From contig DAIDHL010000002.1 of NCBI GenBank assembly GCA_027459745.1, positions 9,113-73,112 of the forward strand: a DNA stretch of 64,000 bases, written 5' to 3'. Shown here piece by piece: positions 2,523 through 63,048 of the stretch. Origin of the DNA: Candidatus Levyibacteriota bacterium (GTDB lineage: Bacteria; Patescibacteriota; Microgenomatia; Levybacterales; UBA12049). How positions within the stretch are numbered: the first letter of the stretch is position 1; every line of letters begins with the position of its first letter. Below the pieces are notes generated by a model. That model was not told the DNA's origin, ran no database searches, and saw only the letters and a program-made list of their open reading frames with translations. A program made the translations under genes and the position numbers.

Positions 2523-2551
2523 TGCTATAACTACTAAGGCTAAATACTTGA

Positions 2552-3160: not shown

Positions 3161-3162
3161 CT

Positions 3163-3747: not shown

Positions 3748-3753
3748 TTAAGA

Positions 3754-37190: not shown

Positions 37191-39431
37191 ATGTTCTCCT
37201 CTGTCCGGAAATTTTTTTTCCTAGTAATCTTGCTAGGACTACTTTTTTTAGCTCCAAAATTAGCTTTTGCTCAAACTGTAAATAATTCAACCTCTTATTC
37301 TAATCAATCTACACAATCCACTGCTATGGTACAACATGACAAAGTTCAACAGTTGATGATTGACGTCCTAAGTGCTTTTAGCTGCCAGTTAGCGGGATAT
37401 GATGCAGCTTTTCCTAATCAACCCTGCGTAACCACAAATACAAAAACTAACACATATGGAACAAGTAATGTTAAAAACTTTGGTTTAATAGGCCTAGAAG
37501 TGCAAGGAATGCTATTAACTTTCACCCCAGTTGCTCATACCGGAACATACATACAAGATATGACTAGTAACTTTGGCCTTGTTAAACACGCCGATGCAGC
37601 TACTGATCCTTGTGCAACTGGTGGGACTTTTGGACAAGGTGTAGGTTACTGTCAACTATACCCTCTCCTACAAATTTGGTCTGTGATGAGAAATCTGGCC
37701 TATCTGGGATTTGTTTTTGTTTTTATCTTAATTGGTTTTGCTATTATGCTTCGCTTGAAGCTAAATCCGAATACAGTTGTCAGCATACAGAATACTATTC
37801 CAAAAATTATAATTGCTTTGGTGTTAATTACCTTCTCTTACGCTATAGCTGGTTTTTTGGTAGATATGATGTATGTATCTATTGGTGTAGTTATTAAACT
37901 AGGAACTCAGGTTGATCCTTTAAGTACCAATAATGCTAATGTCACCATCCCATCTATAATGGGAGACTTGCAGGGAGATAATCCTATAAGCTACGCCAAC
38001 CAAATGATGGGACTTTATGGTACATCTAATACAGCAGCCCAAGCTTTAGGTAATGCAGCTGGCGATATAATAGCCTCTTTTGGAGATGCAGGAAGGATAA
38101 TGGCAGCATTAGTAGGAGGAATCGTGGGAGCTAAGGCAGGAGCAGCTGCAGGAGGATTTTTACAAATTGCAGGAAGTGTTATTGGAGGAGTAGCAGGAAC
38201 ATTTGTTGAGCCAGGAGGTGGATCCGCAGCAGGAGCTGCATTAGGAGGAGGATTAGCAACCGCGCTTGGAACTGCATTAGGATTTGTAGCTGGTGCAGTA
38301 GCTCCAGGTCAAACTATAGCGTTTATGGGTGAGATAATTGGTACCATAGTTCTCTTCATTGCTATATTTATCTCACTCGCTCAACTCTGGCTTGTGTTAC
38401 TTAAAGCATATATCACCATACTTATTGATGTGGTATTCGCACCATTTTGGATTTTGTTGGCCATTGTACCTAAATCAAAATTTACTTTTGGTTCCTGGGT
38501 AAAGGATATGCTGGCCAACCTAGCTGTCTTCCCTATGGTCATCGGCATTTTTGAAATTGGGAAAATCTTTATTGATGCATTTCGCCAACATTATGACTCA
38601 GGCAGATTATTTGCTCCTCCATTAGTAGGCTTAAATACAGGTGGAGAAGGAGCTACTGCACTACAAGCAGTCATAGGCTTAGGTTTTATTTTCCTTGCTC
38701 CTTCTGCTCTAGGCTTAGCCCGTTCCATCTTTGGGGCGCCAAAGTCAAGTCTAATTCAAAATTCTATTCAAGGCTTACAACTTGGAGCTAGCAGAGCAGG
38801 AGCACTATGGGGACAAACAGGTGGCCGCCTAGTAGGAGTAGATAAAAATGGCAATCCTAAACCTTTTACTTCTATACTAGCTGAGAGAAAACGCGAAGCC
38901 GCAGAAGTACGTAATGAGAGATATGCGCAACTACAACATCTTGCATCTAAGCCTGGTGAGAAACTTAGTCTAGGGCAGAAACTACAAATGGGTTACTATC
39001 AAAAGCGCCAGGGATTTGCTAGTAAATTTTCAGAGCCCTTTAAAACATCTCAGCGGATGCTTAAGTTTAATGATACAGTTTTATCTATCATTCACGACAT
39101 TGAACATGATCCAAAACTTGGCCGAGAAGCTTTAAATCGGGGAGATGCATTTGAGACACTTATAATTCCCAGAATCACTGCAAAATTACGTCATGAGACA
39201 AATAATTCACGCCTCGAGCTTGATGATCGAGCCATACTACAAGCGGCTAGAGTATCTATGACAGAAAAGGGTCAGCCTATGAGACAAGATCAAATTAATG
39301 TGCTAAAGAAGAGAATTGAAAGTAAAATTGAGGCAAGAGACCATAAGGGTGCCAATGTTGAAATTGACCTAACCCAGGCAGATAGTAATTTTACTCCACA
39401 GCCAGTCTCCCCAGGTCAGCCTAAGCCTTAA
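37191..39431 (+). CDS. VirB6/TrbL-like polytopic membrane protein with Gly/Ala-rich segment
   Basis: Signal peptide, at least 6 TM helices, G/A-rich linker (GAKAGAAAGG...GGGSAAGAALGGG), then a charged C-terminal domain. The context includes VirB4 and pilins. Confidence 0.45.
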   Translation: MFSSVRKFFFLVILLGLLFLAPKLAFAQTVNNSTSYSNQSTQSTAMVQHDKVQQLMIDVLSAFSCQLAGYDAAFPNQPCVTTNTKTNTYGTSNVKNFGLIGLEVQGMLLTFTPVAHTGTYIQDMTSNFGLVKHADAATDPCATGGTFGQGVGYCQLYPLLQIWSVMRNLAYLGFVFVFILIGFAIMLRLKLNPNTVVSIQNTIPKIIIALVLITFSYAIAGFLVDMMYVSIGVVIKLGTQVDPLSTNNANVTIPSIMGDLQGDNPISYANQMMGLYGTSNTAAQALGNAAGDIIASFGDAGRIMAALVGGIVGAKAGAAAGGFLQIAGSVIGGVAGTFVEPGGGSAAGAALGGGLATALGTALGFVAGAVAPGQTIAFMGEIIGTIVLFIAIFISLAQLWLVLLKAYITILIDVVFAPFWILLAIVPKSKFTFGSWVKDMLANLAVFPMVIGIFEIGKIFIDAFRQHYDSGRLFAPPLVGLNTGGEGATALQAVIGLGFIFLAPSALGLARSIFGAPKSSLIQNSIQGLQLGASRAGALWGQTGGRLVGVDKNGNPKPFTSILAERKREAAEVRNERYAQLQHLASKPGEKLSLGQKLQMGYYQKRQGFASKFSEPFKTSQRMLKFNDTVLSIIHDIEHDPKLGREALNRGDAFETLIIPRITAKLRHETNNSRLELDDRAILQAARVSMTEKGQPMRQDQINVLKKRIESKIEARDHKGANVEIDLTQADSNFTPQPVSPGQPKP

Positions 39432-42572: not shown

Positions 42573-43913
42573 TCAAGGAGTAAACTTAAAGCCCCTACCT
42601 TTCATGGTCATAATGTGAGTAGGCTGACTGGGATTATCTTCAATTTTTTTACGCAACCTGAGTATTAATTGATCCAAAGCTTGCTCTGTAACTCCTGATA
42701 TAGATTTGTTTTCTCCCCATACCACCTCAATAATTTTTTCTCTATCCACAATTTGTTCGGGATTTAACAAGAAGTATTTAAGTAATCGCAATTCGGATGC
42801 CGTTAAATCATCAGATAGAATTAAACTCCCCTTATGAATTATATTCTTATCAATATCCAATTCTATTTGATCTTTGCTGGCAATTAAAATATTAGAATTT
42901 TTACTTAAAAACTCACTAAAAAGCGGTATGGTTAATTTATTTTCTCTAACTAAGCCTATTTTCTCCAAGTACCGTTCAATATTTTGATTTTCCTCATTTC
43001 TATTTTTACCCAGTATCCACATTTGTTCCGATGGGCTAAAAACATTCCACAGTTCTTTCAACCCCCCTCTTATAGATGTCTGCTCAAGTAAAAAACTTAG
43101 CATTTGGGATTCTTTAAATTGCTCTTCCTTCACTAAATATGCTTCTGCCGCTAAACGGGTCAGCTTGCCATGCCCACTAGTTAAGCCAATAATTTCTTGG
43201 CGTACTTTGGAGGGGATGGTTTTCCCGGTAGCTCGTTCGATATAATCTAGGCGGAATTGTAATCCTGAAATATCTTTTAGATTTAAATATACTAGATGAC
43301 CAGCCAGAAACTCGTGGAAGTCGGAAAAAGTAACTGGCTCTATAAGCTCTTCCAGCGATTTGTTTAAGGAAAAAACTACGGAGAAACGATATTTAGCTCT
43401 ATTACGTAAAATACGCAGATTGGCAAAAAAAGCTGAAGTTAAATTAGGAATATAATCTTCAAAACGATCGAATAGGAACACAATTGTCATCTCTTCATCA
43501 ATAGCTAGATAATCAATTGCATGTTTTAAACCCTGAAAGAGTACCATTTCATCATTAAATGACAAACTTTCTTTGAATAGATTATTCACTTCCTCATAAA
43601 CATCCTCCATTTTACGCTGACGCAAAGATTCAAGTAGACTGAGAAACAAAAGTTTGGTAACTGAGAAAAGATTTTTTCCACGTAATTCAGAAAAATCAAC
43701 TAATACAAAATTAAACCATTTTTGGTTATCACCTAAATGACGTAGACGAACAAAGCGATTATACACTAATAAATGCAAGACTGTGCTCCTGCCTGCGCCT
43801 GGCAAACCTATAAGCTGACAGGAATTACCTTCTTTAATAAAAGAAAGGATTTTCTTGATTTCTTCAAATCTAGTTTCTTCCGGATAAAGCGATTCGAAGT
43901 GGGCAAGTTCCAT
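42573..43913 (-). CDS. Putative regulator: degenerate P-loop NTPase domain plus C-terminal OmpR/PhoB-type winged helix
   Basis: N-terminal 'IGLPGAGRST' (Walker-A-like with Arg in place of Lys) and 'IVFLFDRFEDY' (Walker-B-like). C-terminal 'LTASELRLLKYFLLNPEQIVDREKIIEVVWG...LRLRKKI...TMKGRGFKF' matches the Trans_reg_C wHTH. Confidence 0.6.
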   Translation of the reverse strand: MELAHFESLYPEETRFEEIKKILSFIKEGNSCQLIGLPGAGRSTVLHLLVYNRFVRLRHLGDNQKWFNFVLVDFSELRGKNLFSVTKLLFLSLLESLRQRKMEDVYEEVNNLFKESLSFNDEMVLFQGLKHAIDYLAIDEEMTIVFLFDRFEDYIPNLTSAFFANLRILRNRAKYRFSVVFSLNKSLEELIEPVTFSDFHEFLAGHLVYLNLKDISGLQFRLDYIERATGKTIPSKVRQEIIGLTSGHGKLTRLAAEAYLVKEEQFKESQMLSFLLEQTSIRGGLKELWNVFSPSEQMWILGKNRNEENQNIERYLEKIGLVRENKLTIPLFSEFLSKNSNILIASKDQIELDIDKNIIHKGSLILSDDLTASELRLLKYFLLNPEQIVDREKIIEVVWGENKSISGVTEQALDQLILRLRKKIEDNPSQPTHIMTMKGRGFKFTP

Positions 43914-44003: not shown

Positions 44004-46478
44004 ATGAGAAAGTCCCTTTTAAATATTCCTTCTATACTTATTTTCTTTAGCTTGTTAGTTTTAATTCTTATATTGCAAATTCTGCCTATAAAAACCGCGC
44101 AGGCTGCAAGCGGCTCTTATGACTATATACCTGCAGGATGCCCTCAAGATCAATGGCATTATGATTCAAGTAAGAAAACCTGGACTAACGACAAAAGTAA
44201 TAATACAAATATGCCTGATACTTGTTATAGCTATGGATTACAGACACCAGATGAAGGCGGACAGATATGGCCACAAGATGGGAGCAAGCTACCAGATAAT
44301 ACAAGCCTGAATAGAGTAAATGGCACAGTCAATGCTAATGACAGGTATGTGAAAATTATAATTCACGGAAATTTTGTTTTAGGAGATCCCAAAAATGGTC
44401 AGTACGAAAGCTCTCTGAACGGTGCTTTCCATAACTTAAATAATGATTATTACTATTCCTTTGCTGTTGAAGATTCTAATGGAGGCATCCAACAAAATAT
44501 AATCTCCTTATTAAAATTCTGTGCTCCTAACTCTAACTCGGAAACTCTGGTAGATCTCTGTCTATATCACAATCATGGCGTTTCATATAGTGAAGATGGT
44601 ACCTATCCAGCTGATAATTCCTTTGGACAGCCAATATCAATTGACAAACAAATCCCAGATATCGGTACTGTAGTAAATCTAGTATCAAGTGCAGGCTATA
44701 AAACTAATGAACTTGTCTTTTACATACCAATTAAGAGCTCTAATTCCGATCTTACACTGAAAACTGTTCAATTTGCTGTTTGGCAAGGTAGTGACCCCTT
44801 AAAAAATATAGATGTATGGTGGAATAATATAATTGCACAAGGAAGTTTTGTAGTTGGAGCACAAGGTAGCGCAAGATTAGGTAGCCCAGGTATAGTTATA
44901 CAACCACGCGGAGGTGCGGCAACAGGTACTGAATATACTTATCAAACAGGTCAACCTATTACAGTTAATTTAACCAATGTAGATAATTCAGTAGGGTACA
45001 CACTTGGACTATACGATATTAGTGATCCCAATAATACTCAACATCTAGAAGACTTATGGAGTAATCAAAAATTAGACCAGAATATTAATATATCTAATAA
45101 TGATAGTACTCTTAGTAGTGGCGGTAAGAGCACGTATAACTCAACTAATCATACTGAAACATTTACTCTTACAGCAAATAACAATTTTACCCAAAACCCT
45201 GTAATGTTATGTCTCTTTCAACCAATAAATGGGAGTAGTGATGTGGGTTGTACTACCACTACAAATTTTAATAGTGCTAACGGCACATCTGGTGAAGGTT
45301 TTGCAACAAGCCATGGTTTTATTGTAACTACATTATCGCCCGATAAGGTCCAGTCTCCCACCCGAGCTGCCGGTGCGTCCGGAGATGTAAAATGGACTCC
45401 CCTGACTACTGCTGTTGGTATGTTCTTACCTTGCAACAATGACCCCAGTCTTTCTGCCGCAAATGCTCCTTCTGTTAAAAACCTCGGCACTAAAGGCGTT
45501 GACTCAAATCAATTTCTCTTTTCCGATGCCTGGAGTAATTTCCTTGCGGCAGCAAATTTCTTCTTTACCGGCCAATCGACCACACCACCTAACACAAATA
45601 GTAATCAACAGCTAGCTTATAACTCAACATCTTCACCTGAGTTTGCTTTGCAACCAGGCTCGGGAGTCAGTGGAAATGGAGGATTACAAGTCTATCCTAA
45701 TTCAGTTAAATATATGCAAGATTCATTGACTTTATATTTCACGACACCAACAAATGGAGTCAACGGAACATATAATATAAAAATAGAAAGAAATTCCGAT
45801 GCTGCATCAGTAGTAGACACCACAGTTAAGGCTTGTTCTAATCTAAAAGTTGGAGATACCTGCAGTATCCAAATACCAGTTAGTGATTTCCACAACATTG
45901 TAATTCCATACAATCAAAATGTTCCTTTTATAGTCAACATATTAGATAGTCAAATTGGTTTTGCTCAGTCTTTTCCAATTACAATGACCGGATATATTGC
46001 TTGTAATTACCCAGCAAGTACTTCTGACACACAAAATTTAAAATGTTATAACGGACAAACATGTGTAGATAATGTCTCCGGAAGTAGTCAAGGACATACC
46101 ACCGCAACATCAAGTTGTTCAAGCCCTGCTGCACCTAAATCCCCAGTAGGGACAAATCCTACAATCACTCCCACTATTGGTCCATTAGCTCCTTGTGTTG
46201 CTGTAGATACAGCTATGGGGAATATCAACACAGACCCAGTTGGGTTTATTCAGAGTTTATTTGGTATTTTGCTTAGCTTGAGTGGTGGAATAGCACTGTT
46301 GATTATCATCTACAATGGTTATCGTCTCATGATTTCCCGCGGCAACCCAGACGCCATCAAAAAAGCGCGTGAAGGTATTACCTCTGGTATCATAGGTATT
46401 ATCTTTGCTATCCTATCTATAGCCATATTACAAACCATTGGAGTCGATATTTTACATTTACCAGGATTTGGAAACTAA
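44004..46478 (+). CDS. Large secreted surface protein fused to a C-terminal VirB2/TrbC-like pilin module
   Basis: Signal peptide. About 720 aa S/T/N-rich extracellular region with Cys pairs. C-terminal '...LSLSGGIALLIIIYNGYRLMISRGNPDAIKKAREGITSGIIGIIFAILSIAIL' matches the two-helix pilin module of the three small pilin-like genes. Confidence 0.6.
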   Translation: MRKSLLNIPSILIFFSLLVLILILQILPIKTAQAASGSYDYIPAGCPQDQWHYDSSKKTWTNDKSNNTNMPDTCYSYGLQTPDEGGQIWPQDGSKLPDNTSLNRVNGTVNANDRYVKIIIHGNFVLGDPKNGQYESSLNGAFHNLNNDYYYSFAVEDSNGGIQQNIISLLKFCAPNSNSETLVDLCLYHNHGVSYSEDGTYPADNSFGQPISIDKQIPDIGTVVNLVSSAGYKTNELVFYIPIKSSNSDLTLKTVQFAVWQGSDPLKNIDVWWNNIIAQGSFVVGAQGSARLGSPGIVIQPRGGAATGTEYTYQTGQPITVNLTNVDNSVGYTLGLYDISDPNNTQHLEDLWSNQKLDQNINISNNDSTLSSGGKSTYNSTNHTETFTLTANNNFTQNPVMLCLFQPINGSSDVGCTTTTNFNSANGTSGEGFATSHGFIVTTLSPDKVQSPTRAAGASGDVKWTPLTTAVGMFLPCNNDPSLSAANAPSVKNLGTKGVDSNQFLFSDAWSNFLAAANFFFTGQSTTPPNTNSNQQLAYNSTSSPEFALQPGSGVSGNGGLQVYPNSVKYMQDSLTLYFTTPTNGVNGTYNIKIERNSDAASVVDTTVKACSNLKVGDTCSIQIPVSDFHNIVIPYNQNVPFIVNILDSQIGFAQSFPITMTGYIACNYPASTSDTQNLKCYNGQTCVDNVSGSSQGHTTATSSCSSPAAPKSPVGTNPTITPTIGPLAPCVAVDTAMGNINTDPVGFIQSLFGILLSLSGGIALLIIIYNGYRLMISRGNPDAIKKAREGITSGIIGIIFAILSIAILQTIGVDILHLPGFGN

Positions 46479-46481
46479 CAT

Positions 46482-46847
46482 ATGTTAAAAGATACCTTGC
46501 TAGCCCTTACTATTCCCGGCCCCAATAGCGGCACTACTAATATTACCCTACCCAATGCTGTAAGTTGCGGCAGCAATGGCTGTTTTAACACCATCATGCA
46601 AGGTATTGTTCAATGGCTGTTTGTCTTTGCAATTATACTTTGCCTAGCTTATTTAATCTGGGGAGGTATAGATTGGACCATGTCCTATGGGGATAAAACT
46701 AAAATACAGAAAGCTCGATTAAAACTTGTGTATGCCATCATAGGTTTATTTATTGTTTTCTTGTCATTCTTCATTATCAACCTAAGTGGTAAATTATTGG
46801 GGCTACCTCTCACCAATGTCAGCACACAAATAAATACTGCCCCATAA
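46482..46847 (+). CDS. VirB2/TrbC-like T4SS pilin-module protein
   Basis: Hydrophobic helix - 'LIWGGIDWTMSYGDKTKIQKARLKLVYAIIGLFIVFLSF' - second helix. Start is 4 nt after the preceding stop. Confidence 0.55.
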   Translation: MLKDTLLALTIPGPNSGTTNITLPNAVSCGSNGCFNTIMQGIVQWLFVFAIILCLAYLIWGGIDWTMSYGDKTKIQKARLKLVYAIIGLFIVFLSFFIINLSGKLLGLPLTNVSTQINTAP

Positions 46848-46868
46848 TTTCCTATATAATATGCCTGT

Positions 46869-48098
46869 ATGAGCAAATCATTATTTTACTGGTTAAGCGG
46901 GTCTATCTTGTTTATTTTGGCTGTAATTGCAATTATCGGACCCCGTACTCTCTTTGTCGATGTCAGTGAATATCACTGTTATGCGAGTTTATTTTGGACA
47001 GGGCATCTACAAAACAACCACCTCGAACAACAATACTGCAGACTTGACATCACCCACCTTCAACTGCACAAATACTCATTACCCCAAGAATATCCTTTCT
47101 TGAGTTTGGTGATTTTCTCGCTTCCTTTGCTTTCACCATTGGGTTACAGTCTTAGTTTTAGATTGCTGATGTTATTCTTTTTATTAACCATTTGGTGGTA
47201 TTTTTACAAAACCAAACAGTTTACTTCCGGTATAATTTTACTGCTATTTATTACGCTTGGTTTGAGCTCTGTGGCATTCAATCGTTATGACTTAGTTGCT
47301 TCGAGTCTAACATTTTTTGCCTTAATCCTGGCGAGTAAGAAAAAGTTTTGGTTAAGCTACATATTACTAGCATTGTCTACTTTCCTGAAAATTTATCCTT
47401 TATTTTTTATCCCTTTGGTTTTCATTTTGGAATGGCATAGCTTTAAGTCAAGCAGATTGCAATTAAAAAAATATTATCCTCTCTTATCAGGTCTTGTCGT
47501 TTTAACTATCCTTTTTCTGATATCTTTCAACATTAACGGTCCTCAAACTCTATCACCGTTAGCTTATCAGGTAGTACGGCCATTACAAATCGAGTCCACT
47601 CCTGCTTCAATATTCTTGTTATTTAGCGCAGGTAAAGTCTGTCTTAATCAATCTTTTGGCTCAATAAACCTAATGTCAGTTACTAACGGCCAGTGTCTGC
47701 CTAATTTGCTTAGCAAAAATCTAGAATTTTTTTTTAGTGGGTTAATGTTTATAAGTATCATCACTGTTTATATATCATGGTTTAAACGAAAAGTTATTTT
47801 TTGGCAAGCATGTATTCTACTACTCATAAGCTTAATTGTATTCAACAAAGTCTTAAGCCCACAATACTTTCTCTGGCTCGTACCATTCTTGGCCTTAAAC
47901 CGCAAAGGTTTTTCGTTAAACATATTTGTCTGGCTATTATTGCTTGGTTTGAGTTATATAATTTATCCTGTACTTTATTCTAGTCCACAGTTCCCACTTA
48001 GTTATATATTCTCTGTAATATTAATACGGAATATTTTATTATTTTCTCTCTATGTGTATACTTGGAAAGAAGCGGTTAGCACGCATAATAGTAAATAG
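46869..48098 (+). CDS. Polytopic membrane protein, possible GT-C / O-antigen-ligase-like glycosyltransferase
   Basis: 10-12 predicted TM helices with no soluble domain. Embedded between pilin genes. Confidence 0.4.
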   Translation: MSKSLFYWLSGSILFILAVIAIIGPRTLFVDVSEYHCYASLFWTGHLQNNHLEQQYCRLDITHLQLHKYSLPQEYPFLSLVIFSLPLLSPLGYSLSFRLLMLFFLLTIWWYFYKTKQFTSGIILLLFITLGLSSVAFNRYDLVASSLTFFALILASKKKFWLSYILLALSTFLKIYPLFFIPLVFILEWHSFKSSRLQLKKYYPLLSGLVVLTILFLISFNINGPQTLSPLAYQVVRPLQIESTPASIFLLFSAGKVCLNQSFGSINLMSVTNGQCLPNLLSKNLEFFFSGLMFISIITVYISWFKRKVIFWQACILLLISLIVFNKVLSPQYFLWLVPFLALNRKGFSLNIFVWLLLLGLSYIIYPVLYSSPQFPLSYIFSVILIRNILLFSLYVYTWKEAVSTHNSK

Positions 48099-48146
48099 AT
48101 AAATAAAATATAATTTACACTTAAATCTTATTCATAATTAGACTCT

Positions 48147-49670
48147 ATGCCAATTATTTTATTCTTTAAAAAGCATTTATATTTTTTATTACTTTTCATT
48201 TTTTTTCTTTTATATACCTGCGAAGGAATTTATCTGCTCGATCCTGATTTTGGTTGGCATTTGCGTTTTGGTGAGATAGTACTACAGGCTCACCGCATAC
48301 CATTCAAAGATATTTTTTCCTATACGATGCCTACTTATAATTTTATCAATCATGAGTGGCTTTCTGATGTCATTATTGCCTCGATTTACTCTTTAGCTGG
48401 CTTAGTCGGAGTAGCTATCCTTTTTGCTTTATTTGTCACAGCTGGTTTGGTATTTGCAGTTAAAATTGCCCGTGCTAAAGATCAACTGGGATTTTGGTTG
48501 TCACTGTTAACTATGTTGGCCATAACCACGGTGCAGTTTGCCGGTATTCGCCCCCAGGCCTTGAGCTGGACTTTTTTTATCGTCGTCTGGTATTTGCTTG
48601 ATGTAGTAAAAAACAGATCGCGTTTTATAATCTTGCCCTTAATCTTTCTATTCTGGGCTAATATGCACGCTGCTTTTGCCCTGGGACTATTTCTCTTTTT
48701 TGTCAGTGTCGTCAATGCATTAATTAAGCGTGATAAAGATAGCTGGTACTTTTTTCTATCGTTTCTGGTTGCTACAGGAGTTACTTTAATAAATCCCTAC
48801 GGAATTAAATTATGGCAGGAAGTTATTCTGACTTCCGCATCACCACAAATTTCCCAGGTAGAAGAGTGGACGCCTAGTTTTACGCACATAATATTCCCCA
48901 TGTGGCTATTTGTTGATTTTTCTTTAATCTTACTTTGGTTTAATCGTGCAGATATATCAAAAAAAAACATTTTCTTAATGGCAGTACTAGGTATACTTTT
49001 TGTTACCGGTATTCGCCAAGCTCCCCTATTCATGCTGTTTTTGTTACCTCTTACTATTGAAGCGGTAAAAACATTTATCGATCAGGCAAGAAAGTACCAG
49101 TTTGCTCTTAAGCGCTTGCGAATAGCTTCGGTGGTGATAGCCATCATTACTGTTATTTTTTGCATAGTTAGCCTATGGCCTTTGGAGTCCAGTATTTGGC
49201 AAAGTCGCTTAAACATCTCAAGAAGCATCAGCTTAATATATCCTTCTGGAGCTGTGGCATATCTCCGATCCCATCCTTTTTTAGGAAATTACTACTCTAT
49301 TTATAACTGGGGAGGTTACTTAATTTGGCAATTACCAAACAAAAAGGACTTCATCGACGGACGAATGCCTACCTGGATTAATCCTAATGCACCAAAAAAT
49401 GAGAGTCAGAATGCGTTAAAAGATTTTCTTAAAATTAATAATCCTTCTTCTCTGAATGCAATAATACATAAATATGATATAACCACCTTAATAATATCTC
49501 CTTTAAAATTAACTCCTCCTTCATGTTGGTTATTACAAAAGTGGTGCAACCAAGTTGTTGCACAAAAAAATAAACAAAATCTGCCCTTAATCCATTATCT
49601 GCGGGTCAATGGCTGGCATCAAGTGACCCATGATAAGGTTTCAATAGTTTTTCAGAAAAAGGACATATAG
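48147..49670 (+). CDS. Polytopic membrane protein, GT-C-like glycosyltransferase candidate
   Basis: Over 10 TM helices. First loop 'DPDFGWHLRFGE' resembles acidic loop motifs of GT-C enzymes. C-terminal soluble domain. Confidence 0.4.
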   Translation: MPIILFFKKHLYFLLLFIFFLLYTCEGIYLLDPDFGWHLRFGEIVLQAHRIPFKDIFSYTMPTYNFINHEWLSDVIIASIYSLAGLVGVAILFALFVTAGLVFAVKIARAKDQLGFWLSLLTMLAITTVQFAGIRPQALSWTFFIVVWYLLDVVKNRSRFIILPLIFLFWANMHAAFALGLFLFFVSVVNALIKRDKDSWYFFLSFLVATGVTLINPYGIKLWQEVILTSASPQISQVEEWTPSFTHIIFPMWLFVDFSLILLWFNRADISKKNIFLMAVLGILFVTGIRQAPLFMLFLLPLTIEAVKTFIDQARKYQFALKRLRIASVVIAIITVIFCIVSLWPLESSIWQSRLNISRSISLIYPSGAVAYLRSHPFLGNYYSIYNWGGYLIWQLPNKKDFIDGRMPTWINPNAPKNESQNALKDFLKINNPSSLNAIIHKYDITTLIISPLKLTPPSCWLLQKWCNQVVAQKNKQNLPLIHYLRVNGWHQVTHDKVSIVFQKKDI

Positions 49671-49725
49671 TCATAGATTTACCCCTTGACAAGTAAGTAT
49701 AATTTTAACTAGAGTATAAATAGAT

Positions 49726-50151
49726 ATGAAATTTGATTTAAGAAAACCGTTTATTTTCGCATCTACCACTGCCGTTATGGGCGCAGCTGCTACATTACCA
49801 GCTTTTGCAGGTAATAGTAATTATGTTGGAATCTGTCCAACAGGATCATTTGCAGGAGTATGTAATCCGAATATAAGCACTCTATTGGGCAGTGTTATCA
49901 ATGTAGTCTTCGTTATAGCTATTCTTATTGCCTTGTTCTTCCTTATCTATGGTGGTATTCGTTGGATCATTTCTCAGGGTAATAAAGAAAAGGTCAATGG
50001 AGCTCGAGATATGTTAATAGCTGCTTTGATTGGATTAATTGTCGTCTTCTTATCATATTTTTTGCTTGGTTTGGTTATACAATTATTATTCGGACAATCG
50101 ACACAGAATTTGATTAATTCAGTAACTTCTAATGGTATTTTTAATCATTAA
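49726..50151 (+). CDS. VirB2/TrbC-like T4SS pilin-module protein
   Basis: Signal peptide (cleavage near AFA-GNS). '...LIYGGIRWIISQGNKEKVNGARDMLIAALIGLIVVFLSYF' two-helix module. Confidence 0.6.
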   Translation: MKFDLRKPFIFASTTAVMGAAATLPAFAGNSNYVGICPTGSFAGVCNPNISTLLGSVINVVFVIAILIALFFLIYGGIRWIISQGNKEKVNGARDMLIAALIGLIVVFLSYFLLGLVIQLLFGQSTQNLINSVTSNGIFNH

Positions 50152-50300
50152 TCTCTAGAAATTTATCCAAATTTCAACAGATAAACGCCAATTTTGTTTA
50201 TATGTCCCTAACTCTAATTGGTTTGTAAATAAAATCTTGTGTTTTCCCTCAAATAAACCCTTCAATTGCATTTGTAGACAAAATCAGCTAGATTATTGCT

Positions 50301-50654
50301 ATGGATTGGAATAATTGTTTGCAAAATATCACCAATAATGGCAATACGGTCGGACAAGCGGCTACATTAGGCTGTATTCCGGTACTTTTTTCTAACTTAG
50401 TAAACTCTGCCTTTATTTTTGCGGGTAGTATTGCTGTTATCTTTATCATCTGGTCAGGCATCCAATATATTATGTCCGGTGGAGACCCAAAAAAGGCCGA
50501 GACAGCACGTAAAACCATGACTTGGGCTATCATCGGGCTTTTACTTATTATCTTCTCTGTGGCGATTATAACCATCCTGGGATATATTACAGGAGCTCAT
50601 TGCATAACTTCTTTCGGTTTTACCAACTGTCAGACAAATATCACAGGTAATTAA
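50301..50654 (+). CDS. VirB2/TrbC-like T4SS pilin-module protein
   Basis: 'IIWSGIQYIMSGGDPKKAETARKTMTWAIIGLLLIIFSVAI' module. Confidence 0.55.
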   Translation: MDWNNCLQNITNNGNTVGQAATLGCIPVLFSNLVNSAFIFAGSIAVIFIIWSGIQYIMSGGDPKKAETARKTMTWAIIGLLLIIFSVAIITILGYITGAHCITSFGFTNCQTNITGN

Positions 50655-50691: not shown

Positions 50692-51063
50692 TTAATTCTG
50701 GTTGGTGGAGTCAGCTTTTTCATTCTGCAGTACTTCTTCTAACTTCTGCCGGGTTTCTTTCAACTCCTCCTGATCCAAATCCGCGGGTTTCAATTGTTGC
50801 ATTTCTGCTTCTGTCTTATTTTTTATTCTGATGTAGAAATCTTGATCAATCTTCTCGCCGTTTTCGCTTTCGTCGTCCAAAGCTTTTTGGATATTTCTGT
50901 CCAGTCTCAACTTGTACAAAGCATAATAAGCATCCCAAATCAATTCATCCAACTCTGATTTTTTATCCGAAGATATGATATCAATTTGTTCAAGTAATAG
51001 CTTCTTGAAATCCTCCGCTATGGGTAATAGTCTAATTAGGTTTTTAGTTGAGAAATCTTTCAT
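50692..51063 (-). CDS. Acidic coiled-coil hypothetical protein
   Basis: 123 aa, E/D/K-rich. Downstream of the 981-aa gene on the same strand. Confidence 0.35.
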   Translation of the reverse strand: MKDFSTKNLIRLLPIAEDFKKLLLEQIDIISSDKKSELDELIWDAYYALYKLRLDRNIQKALDDESENGEKIDQDFYIRIKNKTEAEMQQLKPADLDQEELKETRQKLEEVLQNEKADSTNQN

Positions 51064-54070: not shown

Positions 54071-55405
54071 ATGCCTGAAGCAGTAGATACACCACTAACC
54101 TCCCTGACTCCAGATACTGTCTTAACCCCAACAGAGCAAACTGTGATACCTTCGTTAGAGCCAGAAGACAGTGATACGGGCTCTTTAGTAAAACCTGCTA
54201 CAGAAGCCAGCAACATATCTGCCATAGACATCGCAAAAGAGATTGTCCATACTCCAACTAAAGAAAGTATAGGAGCTGATTTAAACACTGTGGCTAATGC
54301 CTTAATCAATCGAGCAGCAAGAAAAGCTCAAAAAGATTATCTGAGTACTGAAGACAAAATGGACTTGCCGGAAGGAGAAAGACTCTTGTATTTAATAAAT
54401 AAGACGTCTGAATTATGTGCTAATGCTAAGGATAAAATTTCTTATGCTGATGATCCAATAACTGACGTCACTTTAAGCACTATTGAACTAATTGACCCAG
54501 CAACTAAAGAAAAGGGTCATATTGTTGGAATAATAGAAGTTTCTCCCAAGACGGAGGATTCTCCTCAAAACCTACAACTAGAAATTAAAACAGCAAAGGG
54601 AACAACTATTACCATTACATTAACACCTGATGAATTACGTCAACAAATTTTTAAAGAACATGCAGCGAGTATTATAGAATACATGTCTGATTCTGATGAC
54701 TCAAAATCAATACTAGAAATCTATGGTCAACAATTGCATGATGGGAAAATGCCCGACAAGTTACCAGATAAATTAGCTGATACATTGGAAAATAAAGCAG
54801 GGGAAATGGGTTTAGTCATGGCTTCGAGGGCAAGAGAGATTCTGGAACCTATTTTACACAATAAAGATATTCCTATAACCGAGAAGGATTCTATTATTAG
54901 AGTTTTGAATGACATTGGTGGAAGAAAAGTAATTGATAAAGATACTATGACTGCAATAGCTGATGTTTTATTTAATCAACGCCTCAAACTCCTGTCCTCA
55001 AATCACAATGCACTTCTTGATAGTGGTGAATATGAGAAGGCTGAAAGACTGAATAGAGAAATGGAGGTATGTCGTCAAGTATTAGACAAGGGCGAAAATA
55101 GCCTGATTTCTCGTTTTTTCACTAAAGTAGAACAAGGAGACGTACCCGAGGAAGCGTTAGCGGTTATGAACCAGATGCTGGAAACAAATAATCCCCGGGG
55201 GTTTATTCAAAACTTAATTTCACAAATCCAACATGATCCTGATTTGAGCCCAGAAGAAAAAGAGGAAAAAATAGCTGCACTTAAGAGTATTCCTTTCTCT
55301 GTGGGACCTGGAATATTTGATACACTTTTTGCGGTGGTACTGGGGATAGGCTCAGAAGTTATCCTCAATGGAGTATTGGCGAAAGGCTCACATATTGCTG
55401 ATTAA
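54071..55405 (+). CDS. Hypothetical protein (444 aa)
   Basis: Hydrophilic with a C-terminal hydrophobic stretch. No motif recognised. Confidence 0.4.
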   Translation: MPEAVDTPLTSLTPDTVLTPTEQTVIPSLEPEDSDTGSLVKPATEASNISAIDIAKEIVHTPTKESIGADLNTVANALINRAARKAQKDYLSTEDKMDLPEGERLLYLINKTSELCANAKDKISYADDPITDVTLSTIELIDPATKEKGHIVGIIEVSPKTEDSPQNLQLEIKTAKGTTITITLTPDELRQQIFKEHAASIIEYMSDSDDSKSILEIYGQQLHDGKMPDKLPDKLADTLENKAGEMGLVMASRAREILEPILHNKDIPITEKDSIIRVLNDIGGRKVIDKDTMTAIADVLFNQRLKLLSSNHNALLDSGEYEKAERLNREMEVCRQVLDKGENSLISRFFTKVEQGDVPEEALAVMNQMLETNNPRGFIQNLISQIQHDPDLSPEEKEEKIAALKSIPFSVGPGIFDTLFAVVLGIGSEVILNGVLAKGSHIAD

Positions 55406-55509: not shown

Positions 55510-57051
55510 ATGGAAAGCAATCATCCCATACCACAAGACGTCACAGGATTTCAGTTTAAATTAATCGGCGCTATGACCGTCAAGCAGTTTTTGTATTTGG
55601 CTGTGCCCTCAGTTGTGGCCTGGGTACTCTATTCCGCACCGTTCTTGCCCTGGTTTATCAAATTCCCCTTGATTATTATTTTGGCAGTATCAGCTGTAGT
55701 CATGGCTTTTTTACCCATTGAAGGAAGACCGGCCGATGTAATGTTAAAGCATTTTTTTGAAGCGTTATTCGCTCCCAATCAGTTTATATATCAAAAAACA
55801 GGACAAAAGTTGGCATTTACAACCATTTCACCCCCCCCAATCTCTCAAAAACCAATGGTTAATCCAATTCTGCAGGCAGAACAAATAAAAACTCGGCAGT
55901 TGCAGGCTTTGTTGCAATCTTCTCAACATGAAAATATGATGGATGATCGTGAATCGTCTTTTATGCAAAAAGTTTCTTCTCTTATGCCTACACCTACAGT
56001 GGTTAACCAAACTGCTACTAGCCCTAGTAGTAAAGGTATTCTGTCCTTTCATCTTCCACAAATTTTTTCTAAACCGTTAGCCTCCAAACCAGTGCTTTCT
56101 AACTTCAAAATGGTTGATTTGGGAGACCAATCAGAGCCAGACATGAAACCTGAGGTAAAAGACCAACCTAAAGAGGCAGATTTAGTAACCCCGGTTACAA
56201 CCCTTCCTCCCGCCCCCGTTATGACCTCTCCAGTGCAGACAACCTCAACTACGAGCATTCCTGCTGTACCTCAAACTATCAACAATCCAATTGCTTCAGT
56301 AGGAGAATCTATTTCTGTGCCTATTACTACACCTGTCACACCTCCTTACCCCAAACCGATGACCTCGTCGCCATCTATTCCTCAGCCTACCCCAAATTAC
56401 GATGCGCAGTTACAACAACTGCAGGCTGAGAAAGAACGTATGGAAAAAGAATTAGCGGAGTTGAAAAAACAAAAAATACAATCTGTTGCGTCTGAACCGC
56501 AAATAATAACCCAAGCAGTAAATACCCCTGTAACAAGCAAGCAGCCTGTGATAAGTTCTCCGGCTACTACAGTTGATCCATTGCCAACACCATCAACCAC
56601 GCCACCAATTAACCAATCCACCCAACAAAGCTCCTCGTCGAATAATTCAACCTCTATCCTTCCTCAAACCTCAGATGGTGTTCAATCACCACATGTGGCA
56701 AAGATTCCAGCGGCTATGGCTAAAAATATGGGGCTACCATCAATTCCTGATTCTCCTAACTTAATTACAGGGATTGTGCGTGATCCACGGGGAAATATTC
56801 TTCCCAACATTCTGGTTGAAGTTAAAGATAAAGAAGGCAATCCAGTCCGTGCTTTTAAGACCAATCAGCTGGGTCAATTTGCCTCAGCCACTCCGCTACT
56901 CAATGGCACGTATACTATAAATTTTGAAGATCTTACAGGTCAGCATAAATTTGATGTTATTGAAATTGTAGCCAAGGGCACAGTCTTATTGCCGATTGGC
57001 ATAGTCTCTCATGATGCTCGAGAAGAATTACGCAAAGCATTGTTTACTTAA
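55510..57051 (+). CDS. PrgI-family (VirB3-like) membrane domain fused to S/T/P-rich linker and transthyretin/carboxypeptidase-regulatory-like domain
   Basis: N-terminal 'FQFKLIGAMTVKQFLYLAVPSVVAWVLY...IILAVSAVVMAFLPIEGRPADVMLKHFFEALFAPNQFIY' resembles PrgI family proteins found upstream of VirB4 in Gram-positive T4SS. C-terminal 'ITGIVRDPRGNILPNILVEVKDKEGNPV...NGTYTINFE' is beta-sandwich-like. Confidence 0.45.
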   Translation: MESNHPIPQDVTGFQFKLIGAMTVKQFLYLAVPSVVAWVLYSAPFLPWFIKFPLIIILAVSAVVMAFLPIEGRPADVMLKHFFEALFAPNQFIYQKTGQKLAFTTISPPPISQKPMVNPILQAEQIKTRQLQALLQSSQHENMMDDRESSFMQKVSSLMPTPTVVNQTATSPSSKGILSFHLPQIFSKPLASKPVLSNFKMVDLGDQSEPDMKPEVKDQPKEADLVTPVTTLPPAPVMTSPVQTTSTTSIPAVPQTINNPIASVGESISVPITTPVTPPYPKPMTSSPSIPQPTPNYDAQLQQLQAEKERMEKELAELKKQKIQSVASEPQIITQAVNTPVTSKQPVISSPATTVDPLPTPSTTPPINQSTQQSSSSNNSTSILPQTSDGVQSPHVAKIPAAMAKNMGLPSIPDSPNLITGIVRDPRGNILPNILVEVKDKEGNPVRAFKTNQLGQFASATPLLNGTYTINFEDLTGQHKFDVIEIVAKGTVLLPIGIVSHDAREELRKALFT

Positions 57052-57056
57052 AAACC

Positions 57057-57707
57057 ATGGCTGCCCAAAAAATTCATTCATCAACACAAAAATTTACCGA
57101 AATTGTCGATATAGTCGATAACATTGTGGTACTGGAGGGCGGCTATGCTTGTGTGGTTATTGAACTCACAGCTACTAATTTTGCCTTATTGTCTCGACAG
57201 GAACAGGATGCCAAGATCTATGCCTATGCGGGTTTACTTAACTCGTTAAATTTCCCTATACAAATTTTAGTACGTAACAAAAGGGTAGATATTACTTCTT
57301 ATATTAATCAACTTGAAGATGCAGAAAAACGCACAACCAACAATCAGTTAAAAGATCAAATCGAGCAATACAAGAGTTTTGTTAATGAAATGGTGACAGT
57401 AAACGTAGTCTTAAATAAGCAGTTTTACATCGTTATTTCATACTCGTCACTTGAAGGCGGTATTGGAGCTATTGCACCAGGTAAAGGCAGTCAGAAAGAT
57501 GCTTTTGTAGCTGCGGCCAGCAAAACCTTATTAACTAAAGCGGAATCTATTCATGGTCAGCTTAATCAGCTGGCGAGCACGGCAAAACTTCTGGAACGAG
57601 AAGAATTAATTAAATTATTTTATGATATTTATAACAACGATATTGTGGAACCAAACCAAATAGTTACAGATATTACAACGCCGATAATTCAGTCGGCAAG
57701 TAAGTAG
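57057..57707 (+). CDS. Hypothetical protein immediately upstream of virB4
   Basis: 216 aa with no TM helix. Confidence 0.4.
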   Translation: MAAQKIHSSTQKFTEIVDIVDNIVVLEGGYACVVIELTATNFALLSRQEQDAKIYAYAGLLNSLNFPIQILVRNKRVDITSYINQLEDAEKRTTNNQLKDQIEQYKSFVNEMVTVNVVLNKQFYIVISYSSLEGGIGAIAPGKGSQKDAFVAAASKTLLTKAESIHGQLNQLASTAKLLEREELIKLFYDIYNNDIVEPNQIVTDITTPIIQSASK

Positions 57708-57759: not shown

Positions 57760-59889
57760 ATGGCTTTATTTAACAAAAAAAGAAATCAAAAGACGGAGAA
57801 CTCTCCGATGGCGGCTGCTCAAGCAGCCGGAGACAAAGCAGTGCAGCAATTGCAAAAAGGCATGGTCTCACTGGTTGATATTATCGCCCCTTCATCGATT
57901 GAAGTAGATTTTAAATATATTCGTATCGGCGAGACCTACTATACGACACTATTTGTAGTTGGCTATCCACGCTTTGTTTCCACCAACTGGCTACAACCTC
58001 TGGTCGATTTTGATCATACTTTGGATATTTCTATGTTTGCCTATCCAACCTCGGGCGCGGACGTATTGGGAGATTTGAAACGTAAAATTGCGGAGATGGA
58101 AGCCACTATTTCTTCGGATATAGAACGTGGCAAACCGGCTGACCCAACCGTTCAGGCAGCCTTGGAAGATGCTCTAGCTTTACAGGAAGAATTGGCCAAG
58201 GGTATTGAAAGATTTTTCCAATTTAGCTTTTATATCACTATTTCTGCTGAGAGTTTACCTGATCTAGTTGATACAGAAAAAAGACTGAAAACCACGCTGG
58301 CCTCAGTCTTGTTAAGCGCCAAGTCCGCGACATTGCAAATGGAAGATGGCTTTAAAACCACCTTACCGATCGCTCAAGACCGCTTGGCTATCACTCGCAA
58401 TATGGACACCACCTCTTTGGCTTCCACCTTTCCTTTTACATCGGCTGTATTAACGCAAAACAAAGGAGTATTGTATGGATTAAATCGACAAAATGGCTCA
58501 TTAATTATCTTTGATCGCTTCTCCTTAGAAAATGCCAATGAAGTCGTATTGGGTAAATCCGGCTCTGGAAAATCTTATACTATCAAACTGGAAATTATGC
58601 GCCAGTTTATGTTAGGCGCCGAAGTAATTGTCATTGATCCAGAAGGAGAATATGAGACCCTTACCCAGGCTATGGGAGGAGAAGTTGTCAGTTTCTCTGC
58701 CAATGATCCCATTAAGATTAATCCTTTTGACTTATCTGAATTATATGAAGAAGGTGAAAACGAGCTAGGACTAAAAATATTATCTTTGCATGGTCTGTTA
58801 AAAATCATCATGGGAAATATTGACGCCGAACATGAGGCTATATTAGATAAGGCCCTGGTTGAGACCTACCGCCAAAAGGGCATTACCCCTGACCCTGCTA
58901 CACAAAAGAAAGATCCTCCCCTAATGGAAGATTTGTATAAAGTTTTATTGGGTTATGAAAATGCAGCTGCACGAGAATTGGCTTATCGTTTGGAAAAGTT
59001 TATCAAGGGCTCAGCTGCTGGGATTTTCAACCAGAAATCAAACTTTGATTTAAAGAACCCTTTAACCGTTTTTAATATCAAACAACTAGAAGAAGACTTA
59101 CGTCCGATTGCCATGCATATCATTCTGGATTTTGTCTGGACGAAAGTTAAAAAGAGCTTAAAGAAACGTGTTTTAGTATTAGATGAAGCCTGGTACATGA
59201 TGAAGTACCAAGATTCAGCCTCATTTGTTTACTCAATCGCCAAACGTGCAAGAAAGTATTACTTAGGCATGACGACTGCCACTCAGGATGTAGAAGATTT
59301 TCTTTCCACTGACTACGGAAAAGCCGTTTTGACCAATTCTTCTATTCAAGTTTTACTCAAGCAGGGCACGGCAGAAGTTGATATGGTTTCGGAAACTTTT
59401 TACCTTACAGAAGGTGAAAAAGAACTACTAGTGTCTGCTGATATCGGGGAAGGATTATTTTTTGCCGGACAGAACCATGTTGCAATCAAAATTATTGCAG
59501 CGCCTTACGAGAATGATATGATTACTTCCAACCCAGCCGAATTACTTAAACAACAACAAGACATGCAAGAACAAGCCGCAGTAGAAGATGCAATCGCACA
59601 ACCTCCTGTAGAGACGACGAATAGTTATGCTAAAAAGACTGATGATTTAATTGGATCTTTAGATGAAAGGGCAAAACAAATTGCAAATCAATTTGCACAA
59701 CCAACTTCTGCTGCTGTTCCCAATATTTCTCCTATAATAAATACTGAAAATATAACGTCTACACCTATATCTGTTAGCGCTCAGCCGGCACAAACCAACC
59801 TTACTGCTCCAGTCCAATCTTTTCAGCCTCCAATACCAACAGCCATACCTACTCAACCAACACCCGCGGATCCCGCCAAACCGTTTTAG
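57760..59889 (+). CDS. virB4: VirB4/TrbE/CagE-family T4SS ATPase
   Basis: Walker A 'GKSGSGKSYT', Walker B 'VLVLDEAWYMM'. Size about 700 aa. Typical VirB4 C-terminal blocks. Confidence 0.85.
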   Translation: MALFNKKRNQKTENSPMAAAQAAGDKAVQQLQKGMVSLVDIIAPSSIEVDFKYIRIGETYYTTLFVVGYPRFVSTNWLQPLVDFDHTLDISMFAYPTSGADVLGDLKRKIAEMEATISSDIERGKPADPTVQAALEDALALQEELAKGIERFFQFSFYITISAESLPDLVDTEKRLKTTLASVLLSAKSATLQMEDGFKTTLPIAQDRLAITRNMDTTSLASTFPFTSAVLTQNKGVLYGLNRQNGSLIIFDRFSLENANEVVLGKSGSGKSYTIKLEIMRQFMLGAEVIVIDPEGEYETLTQAMGGEVVSFSANDPIKINPFDLSELYEEGENELGLKILSLHGLLKIIMGNIDAEHEAILDKALVETYRQKGITPDPATQKKDPPLMEDLYKVLLGYENAAARELAYRLEKFIKGSAAGIFNQKSNFDLKNPLTVFNIKQLEEDLRPIAMHIILDFVWTKVKKSLKKRVLVLDEAWYMMKYQDSASFVYSIAKRARKYYLGMTTATQDVEDFLSTDYGKAVLTNSSIQVLLKQGTAEVDMVSETFYLTEGEKELLVSADIGEGLFFAGQNHVAIKIIAAPYENDMITSNPAELLKQQQDMQEQAAVEDAIAQPPVETTNSYAKKTDDLIGSLDERAKQIANQFAQPTSAAVPNISPIINTENITSTPISVSAQPAQTNLTAPVQSFQPPIPTAIPTQPTPADPAKPF

Positions 59890-62900: not shown

Positions 62901-63048
62901 GACAGTAACCAATGGTCAGTATGATAATGGCTACGTACAGTGGCAACAACAAGTAGCAAATGCAGTCATTTATGAAAAAAACCTAAAAACGCTCGGAGCT
63001 GCTTGGAAATATTGGGCTTGCGCAAGAGATGTTTTTGGCTTATGGTAA
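59929..63048 (+). CDS. Large membrane-anchored protein with C-terminal lytic transglycosylase (SLT, VirB1-like) domain
   Basis: About 700-aa hydrophilic N-terminal part, single TM (LAIGVSGGAVMIFLLVFVLGL), Ig-like surface repeat, then 'ISACESQYDPNTVASNGPVGLFQMG' SLT catalytic-Glu/GLxQ motif. Confidence 0.6.
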   Translation: MAALNSPPASKFSLLRSRVISGIRHPFGRHNIGNPYRNNDSNNSRSKTTSLFLSREESEQRRFQTERAISDLQNFFRENIPTKRDLQNSKAFSLWLSSNGLLPQFKKLWHEKIIFEKTYHTSSSRLLSNYSSDDSRNIFSRFAPRYFQLRSKYIQKTVESLANVDMLLPLLRQQLNAVNPSNNSISTKTPSSSFSLDPASLRSTLMSIATATDQMRPNPGASSPTLEKHQETASLGNDSKKAEVVMHQEAVKKVDEQESDKKNDADKTDNHKKDLQIQDLITPAPSANNTSGSLTHSINPKPSMGFEKQSFTFIVPPQPSLKEETKETLPTKKYWSRVSKKFSEFPFLRRTAAPNPLRQQVDAVRWIKYANTSLNNLPDAQLAQHDPNFPRYRAAYKQQEAFLKQRGLSRWRSPSMSSNPSISQQREISLPPETLPFAKEATTGSAISVNLQDRITNPTIIPTTEPLHMQAKRDAATLYRQAGEVPNELSSSVRQALVARNLSQLKQPFSSLQGQLPNITFAQIHQGEIEIARLQAKIQSQRPVTKLSTLITPTPPLSSGPQDPIRLTVTPTSITPSPVQDGSRIDNTNITKKTNVPTTITQPGFNATFNLNIPSRQIPESASFNITHQTKPSTIKFSFKSGIPASSRRSLRREEEGEDYSYLPERDNPSFTDNYSTPNDEQDTLNSTTTATEEDQSDPQKKNRGLLDTRSFISKYRLAIGVSGGAVMIFLLVFVLGLNGVDAGPSTDNGSGTNGGGSTYNQQNVVLQKTVDNTTGNSIKSGSKLTYTITVNVENDPVQEIDVTDPITFSIKGAPTQVTAPYSYEASSKTLSWKLTNPPQPGGSTTLSFTVSPTDNNTSIYNIAYANVIGSQSGTGSLVGSTIPSNTSNCNNRWNITSGYHDGVNFGDPACVLAKSALVQNYPGAQNYPTWENNPAWPKSPEQALVDLVNQDDPANADYWLGISACESQYDPNTVASNGPVGLFQMGHPGVTVTNGQYDNGYVQWQQQVANAVIYEKNLKTLGAAWKYWACARDVFGLW

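Follow-up and report, generated by a model that had tools for sequence, protein, structure and literature searches.

Pilin-module genes interrupted by genes for two probable GT-C-type membrane proteins, one array member a candidate adhesin, in a type IV secretion locus of a Levyibacteriota bacterium

Which proteins are encoded by the genes that interrupt the pilin arrays of Patescibacteria, and does such an array contain the adhesin of its type IV secretion system (T4SS)? Arrays of VirB2-like pilin genes belonging to Patescibacteria T4SSs have been published (Quinonero-Coronel et al. 2025, PMC12102498; Wang et al. 2023, PMC10633639), and the array of S. epibionticum, situated inside the T4SS cluster, is essential (Wang et al. 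2023, PMC10633639); in both papers the interrupting genes are not identified, glycosylation is not mentioned and an adhesin is reported as not detected. The one Patescibacterium that can be manipulated genetically needs its T4SS and pilin array for living as an epibiont; the literature describes their function as completely unknown and recognises no adhesin. The question was addressed on a stretch of 64,000 nucleotides (nt) of a Candidatus Levyibacteriota bacterium (GCA_027459745.1, contig DAIDHL010000002.1, positions 9,113 to 73,112), in the following termed the window, in which positions 44004-50654 hold six open reading frames (ORFs), all on the + strand. Four of the encoded proteins end in a T4SS pilin module, one of them behind a large ectodomain, and the remaining two are polytopic membrane proteins with features of GT-C glycosyltransferases. 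The favoured reading, for which the chances are judged to be about even, is an extracytoplasmic glycosylation of the pilins and of an adhesin that is presented by the pilin assembly. The six ORFs, found at exactly the positions claimed for them by an earlier first-pass annotation, are as follows (aa, amino acids; TM, transmembrane; CPR, candidate phyla radiation).

44004..46478, + strand: long pilin-module protein, 824 aa; signal peptide ~1-33, ectodomain of ~700 aa, P/T-rich linker, PF18895 module at residues 746-810 (33.6 bits)
46482..46847, + strand: small pilin-module protein B, 121 aa; PF18895 36.6 bits; without signal peptide, short N-terminal tail with a Cys pair
46869..48098, + strand: polytopic 409-aa protein, likely a divergent GT87/PIG-M-like GT-C; Asp31 invariant in the first outer loop, NKVLSPQYFLW motif
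48147..49670, + strand: predicted GT-C-fold glycosyltransferase, 507 aa, STT3/AglB-like; 11 TM helices and an AglB-type extracytoplasmic C-terminal domain (~150 aa); unannotated CPR-wide family
49726..50151, + strand: small pilin-module protein C, 141 aa; PF18895 36.4 bits; Sec signal peptide with cleavage between AFA and G
50301..50654, + strand: small pilin-module protein D, 117 aa; PF18895 43.0 bits; positional ortholog group in 9 genomes

The ORFs are co-directional and separated by short gaps (3, 21, 48, 55 and 149 nt), hence the layout is operon-like; promoter and terminator scans gave signals at or under shuffle expectation.

The four modules were compared with the profiles PF18895 (T4SS_pilin, gathering score 26.6 bits) and PF04956 (TrbC/VirB2, gathering score 27.9 bits). 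All four proteins exceeded the PF18895 cut-off at the bit scores given above (E 4e-8 to 5e-11), which by profile statistics is far beyond chance. PF04956 matches of the same proteins were sub-threshold, with 10.1-17.7 bits and E 0.004-0.97, and would indicate kinship at the superfamily level at best; the match of the modules to NCBIfam NF045849 (Mbov_0395 pilin-like conjugal transfer protein) was likewise sub-threshold. The designation as VirB2/TrbC-type pilins in the first-pass annotation was hence retained as to the T4SS pilin class, 4/4 proteins being above the PF18895 cut-off, and not as to the TrbC/VirB2 family proper, reached with 10-18 bits only. The common pattern of helix, GG, polar loop and helix that had been noticed in the C-terminal modules was confirmed by alignment: a TM helix and G-G are followed by a short K/R-rich loop G[DN]xxK...AR and a second TM helix, at 24-38% pairwise identity. 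Each module thus contains two TM segments and a basic loop, and the positive-inside rule together with the signal peptides points to an orientation with both termini outside. A hidden Markov model (HMM) built from the four modules and run against the six-frame translation of the window detected no copy beyond these four.

The age of the paralogs was assessed by comparison with a sister genome (GCA_027459725.1, locus L085), in which the gene order is the same as in the window. Small pilins B, C and D are each 81% identical to their positional ortholog there, versus 24-38% among the paralogs of the window; for the other genes of the neighbourhood the values are 61% (409-aa protein), 70% (the regulator described below), 74% (507-aa protein) and 96% (a TraC-like protein, also described below). 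Across 8-9 more distant genomes, the modules group by array position and not by genome. Since one-to-one orthologs exist at 81% identity and the types can be traced over 8-9 genomes, the copies are old and individually conserved, with no rapid turnover; as far as sequence comparison goes, each of the four PF18895 proteins represents an old paralog type of its own and none is redundant, which argues for a heteromeric assembly and against antigenic variation, and distinct structural roles are favoured. At 12138-12707 of L085 there is an extra type-C pilin duplicate of 189 aa, 77% identical to window pilin C and extended at its C-terminus by a Cys-rich stretch. An array of antigenic variants or host-range variants of a single pilin that can replace one another, the reading proposed in the literature (PMC12102498) by analogy with Bartonella and Anaplasma, would be in keeping with the low identity among the paralogs and with the recent origin of this duplicate; given the one-to-one positional ortholog of each paralog in the sister genome, the persistence of the types over diverged genomes and the restriction of fast evolution to the ectodomain of the long protein, this explanation is regarded as very improbable.

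The long protein was analysed separately. It carries a Sec-type signal peptide (cleavage between TAQA and AS), followed by an ectodomain at residues ~34-735 with 14 Cys and ~31% Ser, Thr and Asn. A large, Cys-containing and S/T/N-rich domain had thus been described correctly by the first reading of the locus, while the 824 aa assigned to that domain are the length of the whole protein, the extracellular part measuring ~700 aa. A phmmer search with the 824-aa protein against 1.84e9 representatives returned 7454 matches in proteins of 115-878 aa, all of them on residues ~650-824; the best 150 of the 7454 have a median length of 369 aa, and 129 of these 150 measure 250 aa or more and end in the module. 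By these sequence matches, an ectodomain joined to a C-terminal pilin module is a common architecture, with the 824-aa protein at its long end. A word-index homolog search with the same protein gave no return, for which low-complexity words are the probable cause.

For the ectodomain, no relative was detectable but the ortholog in the sister genome (P0125, L085), and Pfam and Protein Data Bank (PDB) sequence searches remained empty. The two orthologs differ at two positions in their last 83 residues, and their ectodomains are ~25-31% identical in partial alignments. The same gradient was seen in four other genomes, with 68-73% identity for the module, 41-50% for the GT-C enzyme and 29-39% for the ectodomain; in distant genomes the ectodomains are unrelated and comprise 227-816 aa. 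Diversification by a diversity-generating retroelement (DGR) was considered as a cause and rejected, as neither positions 36-58 kb of the window nor locus L001 contained template/variable repeats. In L001 (Daviesbacteria metagenome-assembled genome (MAG), JGI 3300025323), a bAvd/23S_rRNA_IVP-type gene is located at 1867-2253 amid pilin-module genes and beside a 477-aa pilin fusion, an arrangement reminiscent of a DGR; within 9 kb of it no template/variable repeat was found, the sole repeat being that between two pilin modules.

Since no adhesin has been detected for Patescibacteria T4SSs in the literature, the class of long pilin-module proteins is the obvious candidate, and the 824-aa protein would be the best candidate for a host-binding adhesin of this T4SS. 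Its module may either anchor the disulfide-containing, fast-diversifying ectodomain of ~700 aa or build it into the pilin assembly, and with their invariant anchors and fast-diverging ectodomains the long proteins are candidate determinants of host specificity. If PF18895 modules were two-helix membrane anchors or channel-proximal T4SS subunits that form no extended pilus, the 824-aa protein would be a membrane-anchored surface protein and no adhesin of a pilus tip; this is a possibility to be taken seriously, although it is held to be somewhat on the less probable side. An anchor is expected to sit at the extreme C-terminus of long proteins, as it does in most of the 150 best module matches, and a domain of ~700 aa on each subunit would be sterically incompatible with a VirB2-type homopolymer; the sub-threshold PF04956 scores point in the same direction, and a Patescibacterial T4SS pilus has never been imaged, reviews treating it as a possibility (PMC12857230). 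Structural subunits, on the other hand, are the better fit to the module-only small members of 103-190 aa, which occur in every array and are kept as distinct ortholog groups, and the essential array of S. epibionticum within its T4SS cluster (PMC10633639) also speaks against a mere anchor.

The 507-aa protein and a profile of 50 family members had no sequence match in Pfam, NCBIfam or the PDB. Its family is nevertheless large, with 306 homologs in a word-indexed search and at least 571 tblastn-confirmed stretches in species-representative genomes, and it extends to Saccharimonadia. The AlphaFold2 model, calculated from a 50-sequence alignment, reached a predicted local distance difference test (pLDDT) value of 92.7 and a predicted template modelling score (pTM) of 0.91. 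When this model was subjected to a Foldseek search, STT3 and AglB chains came out on top (E 5e-7 to 1e-5, TM-score 0.45-0.65) over 413-451 residues including the C-terminal globular unit; the model thus shows the multi-spanning GT-C fold and, behind the last TM helix, a globular C-terminal domain (central core). Cytoplasmic loops are basic, and all invariant polar residues are extracytoplasmic: D32, D34, H38, D55, R135, N172/H174, N216, E240 and R290, together with W388-G-G-Y...D404-G-R-M-P in the C-terminal domain. Acidic residues lie 3-5 positions after TM1, D34 being invariant and D32 present in 48/50 family members. Compared by eye, LDPDFGWH may correspond to the acidic motif of external loop 1 (EL1), I-x-E-W-x-P to the Glu motif of EL5, and NWGGY...DGRMP to WWDYG...D.

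Judged by the model, the 507-aa protein folds and would work like an enzyme of the oligosaccharyltransferase (OST) or protein O-mannosyltransferase (PMT) type, and its relatives appear to be a large, unannotated OST-fold family whose recognition is new. The first-pass proposal of GT-C-like polytopic proteins was therefore borne out by the fold matches to STT3/AglB and, for the 409-aa protein, by GT87/PIG-M signals; more than 10 TM helices had been assumed for each, and both are indeed polytopic, with roughly 10-11 TM segments apiece (11 helices in the 507-aa protein). Transporters appeared only at a Foldseek probability of 0.12 or less, and a transporter reading was rejected. An O-antigen ligase of the PglL/WaaL kind, named in the first-pass annotation as an alternative, was dismissed as well, with no Wzy_C-type match in Pfam, NCBIfam or the listed structural matches and hence neither profile nor fold support.

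For the 409-aa protein, three close homologs and one GT87 protein were available as relatives, and no relation to the 507-aa family was found at the sequence level. The GT87 profile PF09594 matched it with 24.6 bits (E 2.5e-5), 0.4 bits short of the cut-off of 25, and its distant homolog P0124 passes this profile at 5e-13. A profile of the four sequences, searched against the PDB, found glycosylphosphatidylinositol (GPI) mannosyltransferase 1 (PIG-M) at E 1.3e-3, with the K-I-Y-P helix and NKV-x-S-x-QY-x-x-W aligned, and hhalign against CPR GT87 proteins gave E 2.3e-4 at a probability of 45%. AlphaFold2 modelling from four sequences was unreliable (pLDDT 47.6); this low-confidence model matches PIG-U and PIG-M. 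Assignment of the 409-aa protein as a GT87/PIG-M-like GT-C is accordingly likely, though not proven.

Genomic linkage was determined on 79 species-level loci around members of the 507-aa family. A pilin module was present within 10 kb in 22/79 loci and immediately flanked the 507-family gene in 11/79. Pilin genes were found in 12.9% of the flanks at 0-1.5 kb versus 2.1% at 4.5-9 kb (Fisher p 5e-6, odds ratio 7), i.e. an enrichment of ~6-fold. Loci L028, L054, L070 and L082 display the order regulator, long pilin protein, pilin, GT-C, pilin, pilin, which is that of the window with the strand of the GT-C gene flipped; the slot of the 507-family gene between orthologous pilin genes has thus been kept across divergence to 30-50% identity and across strand inversions. 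The members next to pilin genes are dispersed across the family tree, which is poorly resolved. A bona fide GT87 gene was found at most ~4 kb from the 507-family gene in 10 loci; in two of them, L027 and L010, the two genes are direct neighbours, in L010 within a pilin array. The two GT-C types thus form a recurrent pair. Five loci (L017, L036, L052, L063 and L080) have a same-strand GT87 gene ~3.1-3.3 kb downstream of the 507-family gene; this near-constant distance points to a glycosylation operon of several genes that is conserved away from pilin arrays.

The favoured mechanism of extracytoplasmic glycosylation may be pictured as follows. The three small PF18895 proteins would be two-helix pilins, and the two GT-C enzymes inserted in the array, with their conserved catalytic-type residues facing outside, would draw on polyprenyl-phosphate-linked sugars at the outer face of the membrane and glycosylate exported proteins. 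The OST/PMT-like 507-aa enzyme would initiate and the GT87-like 409-aa enzyme elongate, with substrates that may include the S/T/N-rich pilin tails and, in the long protein, the ectodomain or the P/T-rich linker. Pilin glycosylation and an adhesin on a pilus are suggested by same-side topology, recurrent synteny and patterns of evolutionary rate. A more specific version, in which the 507-aa family is a CPR-wide STT3-fold 'mini-OST' with an altered acceptor motif that, together with its GT87-like partner, glycosylates VirB2-type pilins and a hypervariable T4SS adhesin, is put forward tentatively and would have to be called doubtful at present.

Several observations weigh against glycosylation of pilins and adhesin by this pair. 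PF02516 (STT3) gave no match at E<=1 in any of the 50 family members, hhalign paired the 507-aa family with C. lari PglB at a non-significant probability of 1.8%, and the WWDYG motif is not kept, the consensus being Y-N-W-G-G-Y-L-I-W with the Asp absent; on these grounds membership of the family in GT66 by sequence was rejected. A targeted motif HMM run against verified PDB STT3 segments scored a marginal 3-4 bits, matched by 4-13/500 shuffles, and the assignment of the 409-aa protein rests on marginal scores and a poor model. No pilin gene is found within 10 kb in 57/79 loci, synteny across loci is not phylogenetically independent, and a pilus has not been observed in this lineage. Conserved N-glycosylation sequons (N-x-S/T), looked for in the pilin tails, were not conserved among orthologs. 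A polyprenyl-phosphate sugar synthase was absent among the ORFs scanned at 505-28948 (excluding 2058-3751, 5554-6150, 7649-8044, 21212-21580 and 27665-28018). No flippase was detected among the scanned window ORFs either, and the one further glycosyltransferase among them is a GT4 protein (Glycos_transf_1) at 13244-14434 (- strand), ~30 kb upstream.

Most 507-family genes, moreover, adjoin housekeeping genes (smpB, dnaG, rpoD, comF-like, NUDIX), neighbourhoods that mark the 507-aa enzyme as not reserved for the array; glycosylation of the envelope in general could be its task. Both GT-C proteins might then be general envelope enzymes, acting on a wall polymer, a lipoglycan or many surface proteins, and have come to lie in the array of this lineage by chance, with pilins and adhesin not being specific substrates. 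This is considered rather unlikely, since the ~6-fold enrichment of pilin genes is found immediately beside the 507-family gene, since the slot between orthologous pilins has survived sequence divergence and strand inversions, and since the structure is most similar to enzymes that modify proteins, with a C-terminal domain like the peptide-binding unit of AglB. Were the 'mini-OST' version true, glycosylation would be seen for the first time in a conjugative-type (VirB2-class) pilus system, and the missing adhesin class of these essential T4SSs would be identified; confirmation of the two extracytoplasmic GT-C glycosyltransferases in the array would add a bacterial lineage to those with protein-glycosylating GT-C enzymes and change the view of CPR T4SS pilus surfaces.

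The setting of the six ORFs was derived from the neighbouring genes listed below.

37191..39431, + strand: polytopic membrane protein, 746 aa, Gly/Ala-rich; candidate divergent VirB6; 10 related loci have homologs, and several of these loci contain pilin arrays
42573..43913, - strand: regulator, 446 aa; N-terminal part P-loop/AAA-like, winged-helix domain Trans_reg_C (PF00486, E 2e-19)
55510..57051, + strand: PrgI/VirB3-like T4SS membrane protein with a C-terminal extension; PF12666 PrgI 31.1 bits, cut-off 27
57057..57707, + strand: TraC-like/TrsD-like T4SS protein, 216 aa; the L085 ortholog (96% identical) has a precomputed PF26593 TraC-like match
57760..59889, + strand: VirB4-like T4SS ATPase; PF19044 TraG P-loop E 1e-29, also PF12846 AAA_10

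The pilin ORFs lie ~5-7 kb upstream of the PrgI/VirB3-like and VirB4-like genes, and VirB4, PrgI and TraC-like genes thus accompany the PF18895 genes as in a T4SS cluster; a direct Pfam scan of the 216-aa protein gave no match. GC content is ~38% from end to end of the window, which further contains chromosomal genes (FtsH, a class I aminoacyl-tRNA synthetase of the Trp/Tyr type, TGT, MurD, RecF, Fpg and a XerC-like integrase), and the nearest relatives of the window proteins were found exclusively in Patescibacteria/CPR MAGs (Levy-, Davies-, Woese-, Ames- and Roizmanbacteria, Saccharimonadia). The locus is the section of a chromosomal Patescibacteria (CPR) T4SS, of the monoderm kind, that holds the pilin array.

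The 446-aa regulator is transcribed divergently from the long pilin gene and, at 44-70% identity, also stands beside the long pilin-module gene in at least six genomes (L085, L007, L010, L054, L070 and L082), which makes it a candidate dedicated regulator of the pilin array. The 746-aa protein had no family match in Pfam and NCBIfam scans and may possibly represent the divergent Microgenomatia VirB6 that PMC12102498 notes as 'missing'. Four further proteins of the T4SS locus without family matches, probably also without TM segments, are encoded at 39437-42430 (- strand, 997 aa), 50692-51063 (- strand, 123 aa), 51070-54015 (- strand, 981 aa) and 54071-55405 (+ strand, 444 aa); their identity to the sister genome is 49%, 25%, 27% and 30%, respectively, versus 70-96% for their neighbours, and they could be substrates, effectors or accessory factors. 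Directly 3' of VirB4, a 1039-aa ORF (59929-63048, + strand) with a weak DUF7927 match only and a 182-aa ORF (63029-63577, + strand) were observed; in S. epibionticum, the position directly downstream of VirB4 is occupied by cell-wall hydrolases.

Compared with the GT66 enzymes STT3, AglB and PglB (PF02516), the 507-aa protein shares the fold including the C-terminal globular unit and the acidic residues after TM1 (LDPDFGWH). In its family, a long outer loop also contains a Glu that never varies (I-x-E-W-x-P), and the C-terminal domain has an aromatic-Gly motif in collinear position with a conserved Asp behind it; these would be the equivalents of the OST motifs. It differs in having 11 instead of 13 TM helices and ~500 instead of 590-970 aa, and the WWDYG Asp, which in OSTs reads the +2 Ser/Thr, is replaced (NWGGY). 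With GT87 (PimE-type polyprenyl-phosphate-mannose mannosyltransferases, PF09594) and GT50 PIG-M, the 409-aa protein has in common the Asp after TM1, the K-I-Y-P helix and NKV-x-S/T-x-QY-x-x-W, but it is very divergent, with three close homologs.

In actinobacterial protein O-mannosylation, Sec-exported proteins are first modified by a GT39 PMT, and elongation is carried out by GT-C mannosyltransferases; no PMT, PMT_2 or MIR domain match was obtained here. Type IV pilins are glycosylated by PglL/TfpO, and adhesion or tip functions are known from minor pilins or tip pilins that carry a large additional domain (CofB/TcpB), from VirB5 and from the adhesin PrgB. Two concepts are shared with the PglL/TfpO and CofB/TcpB systems, namely a glycosyltransferase gene beside the pilin gene that it modifies and a pilin-like module carrying a large adhesion domain; PglL/TfpO enzymes, however, are of the Wzy_C type and not GT-C, no such match was found here, and type IV pilins are unrelated to VirB2-type modules.

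No report of VirB2-type pilin glycosylation or of GT-C enzymes in Patescibacteria T4SS loci was found in the literature searches made. The window matches the description of the published Patescibacteria arrays, and the pilin array itself is known; here, the interrupting genes would encode GT-C enzymes, one member is long and bears an ectodomain, and the paralogs are conserved ortholog groups. What appears to be new is the pair of an OST-like and a GT87-like GT-C as interrupting genes and the recurrence of the 507-aa family within orthologous pilin arrays of diverged genomes, together with the behaviour of the long pilin-module protein, in which an invariant anchor is combined with a hypervariable ectodomain.

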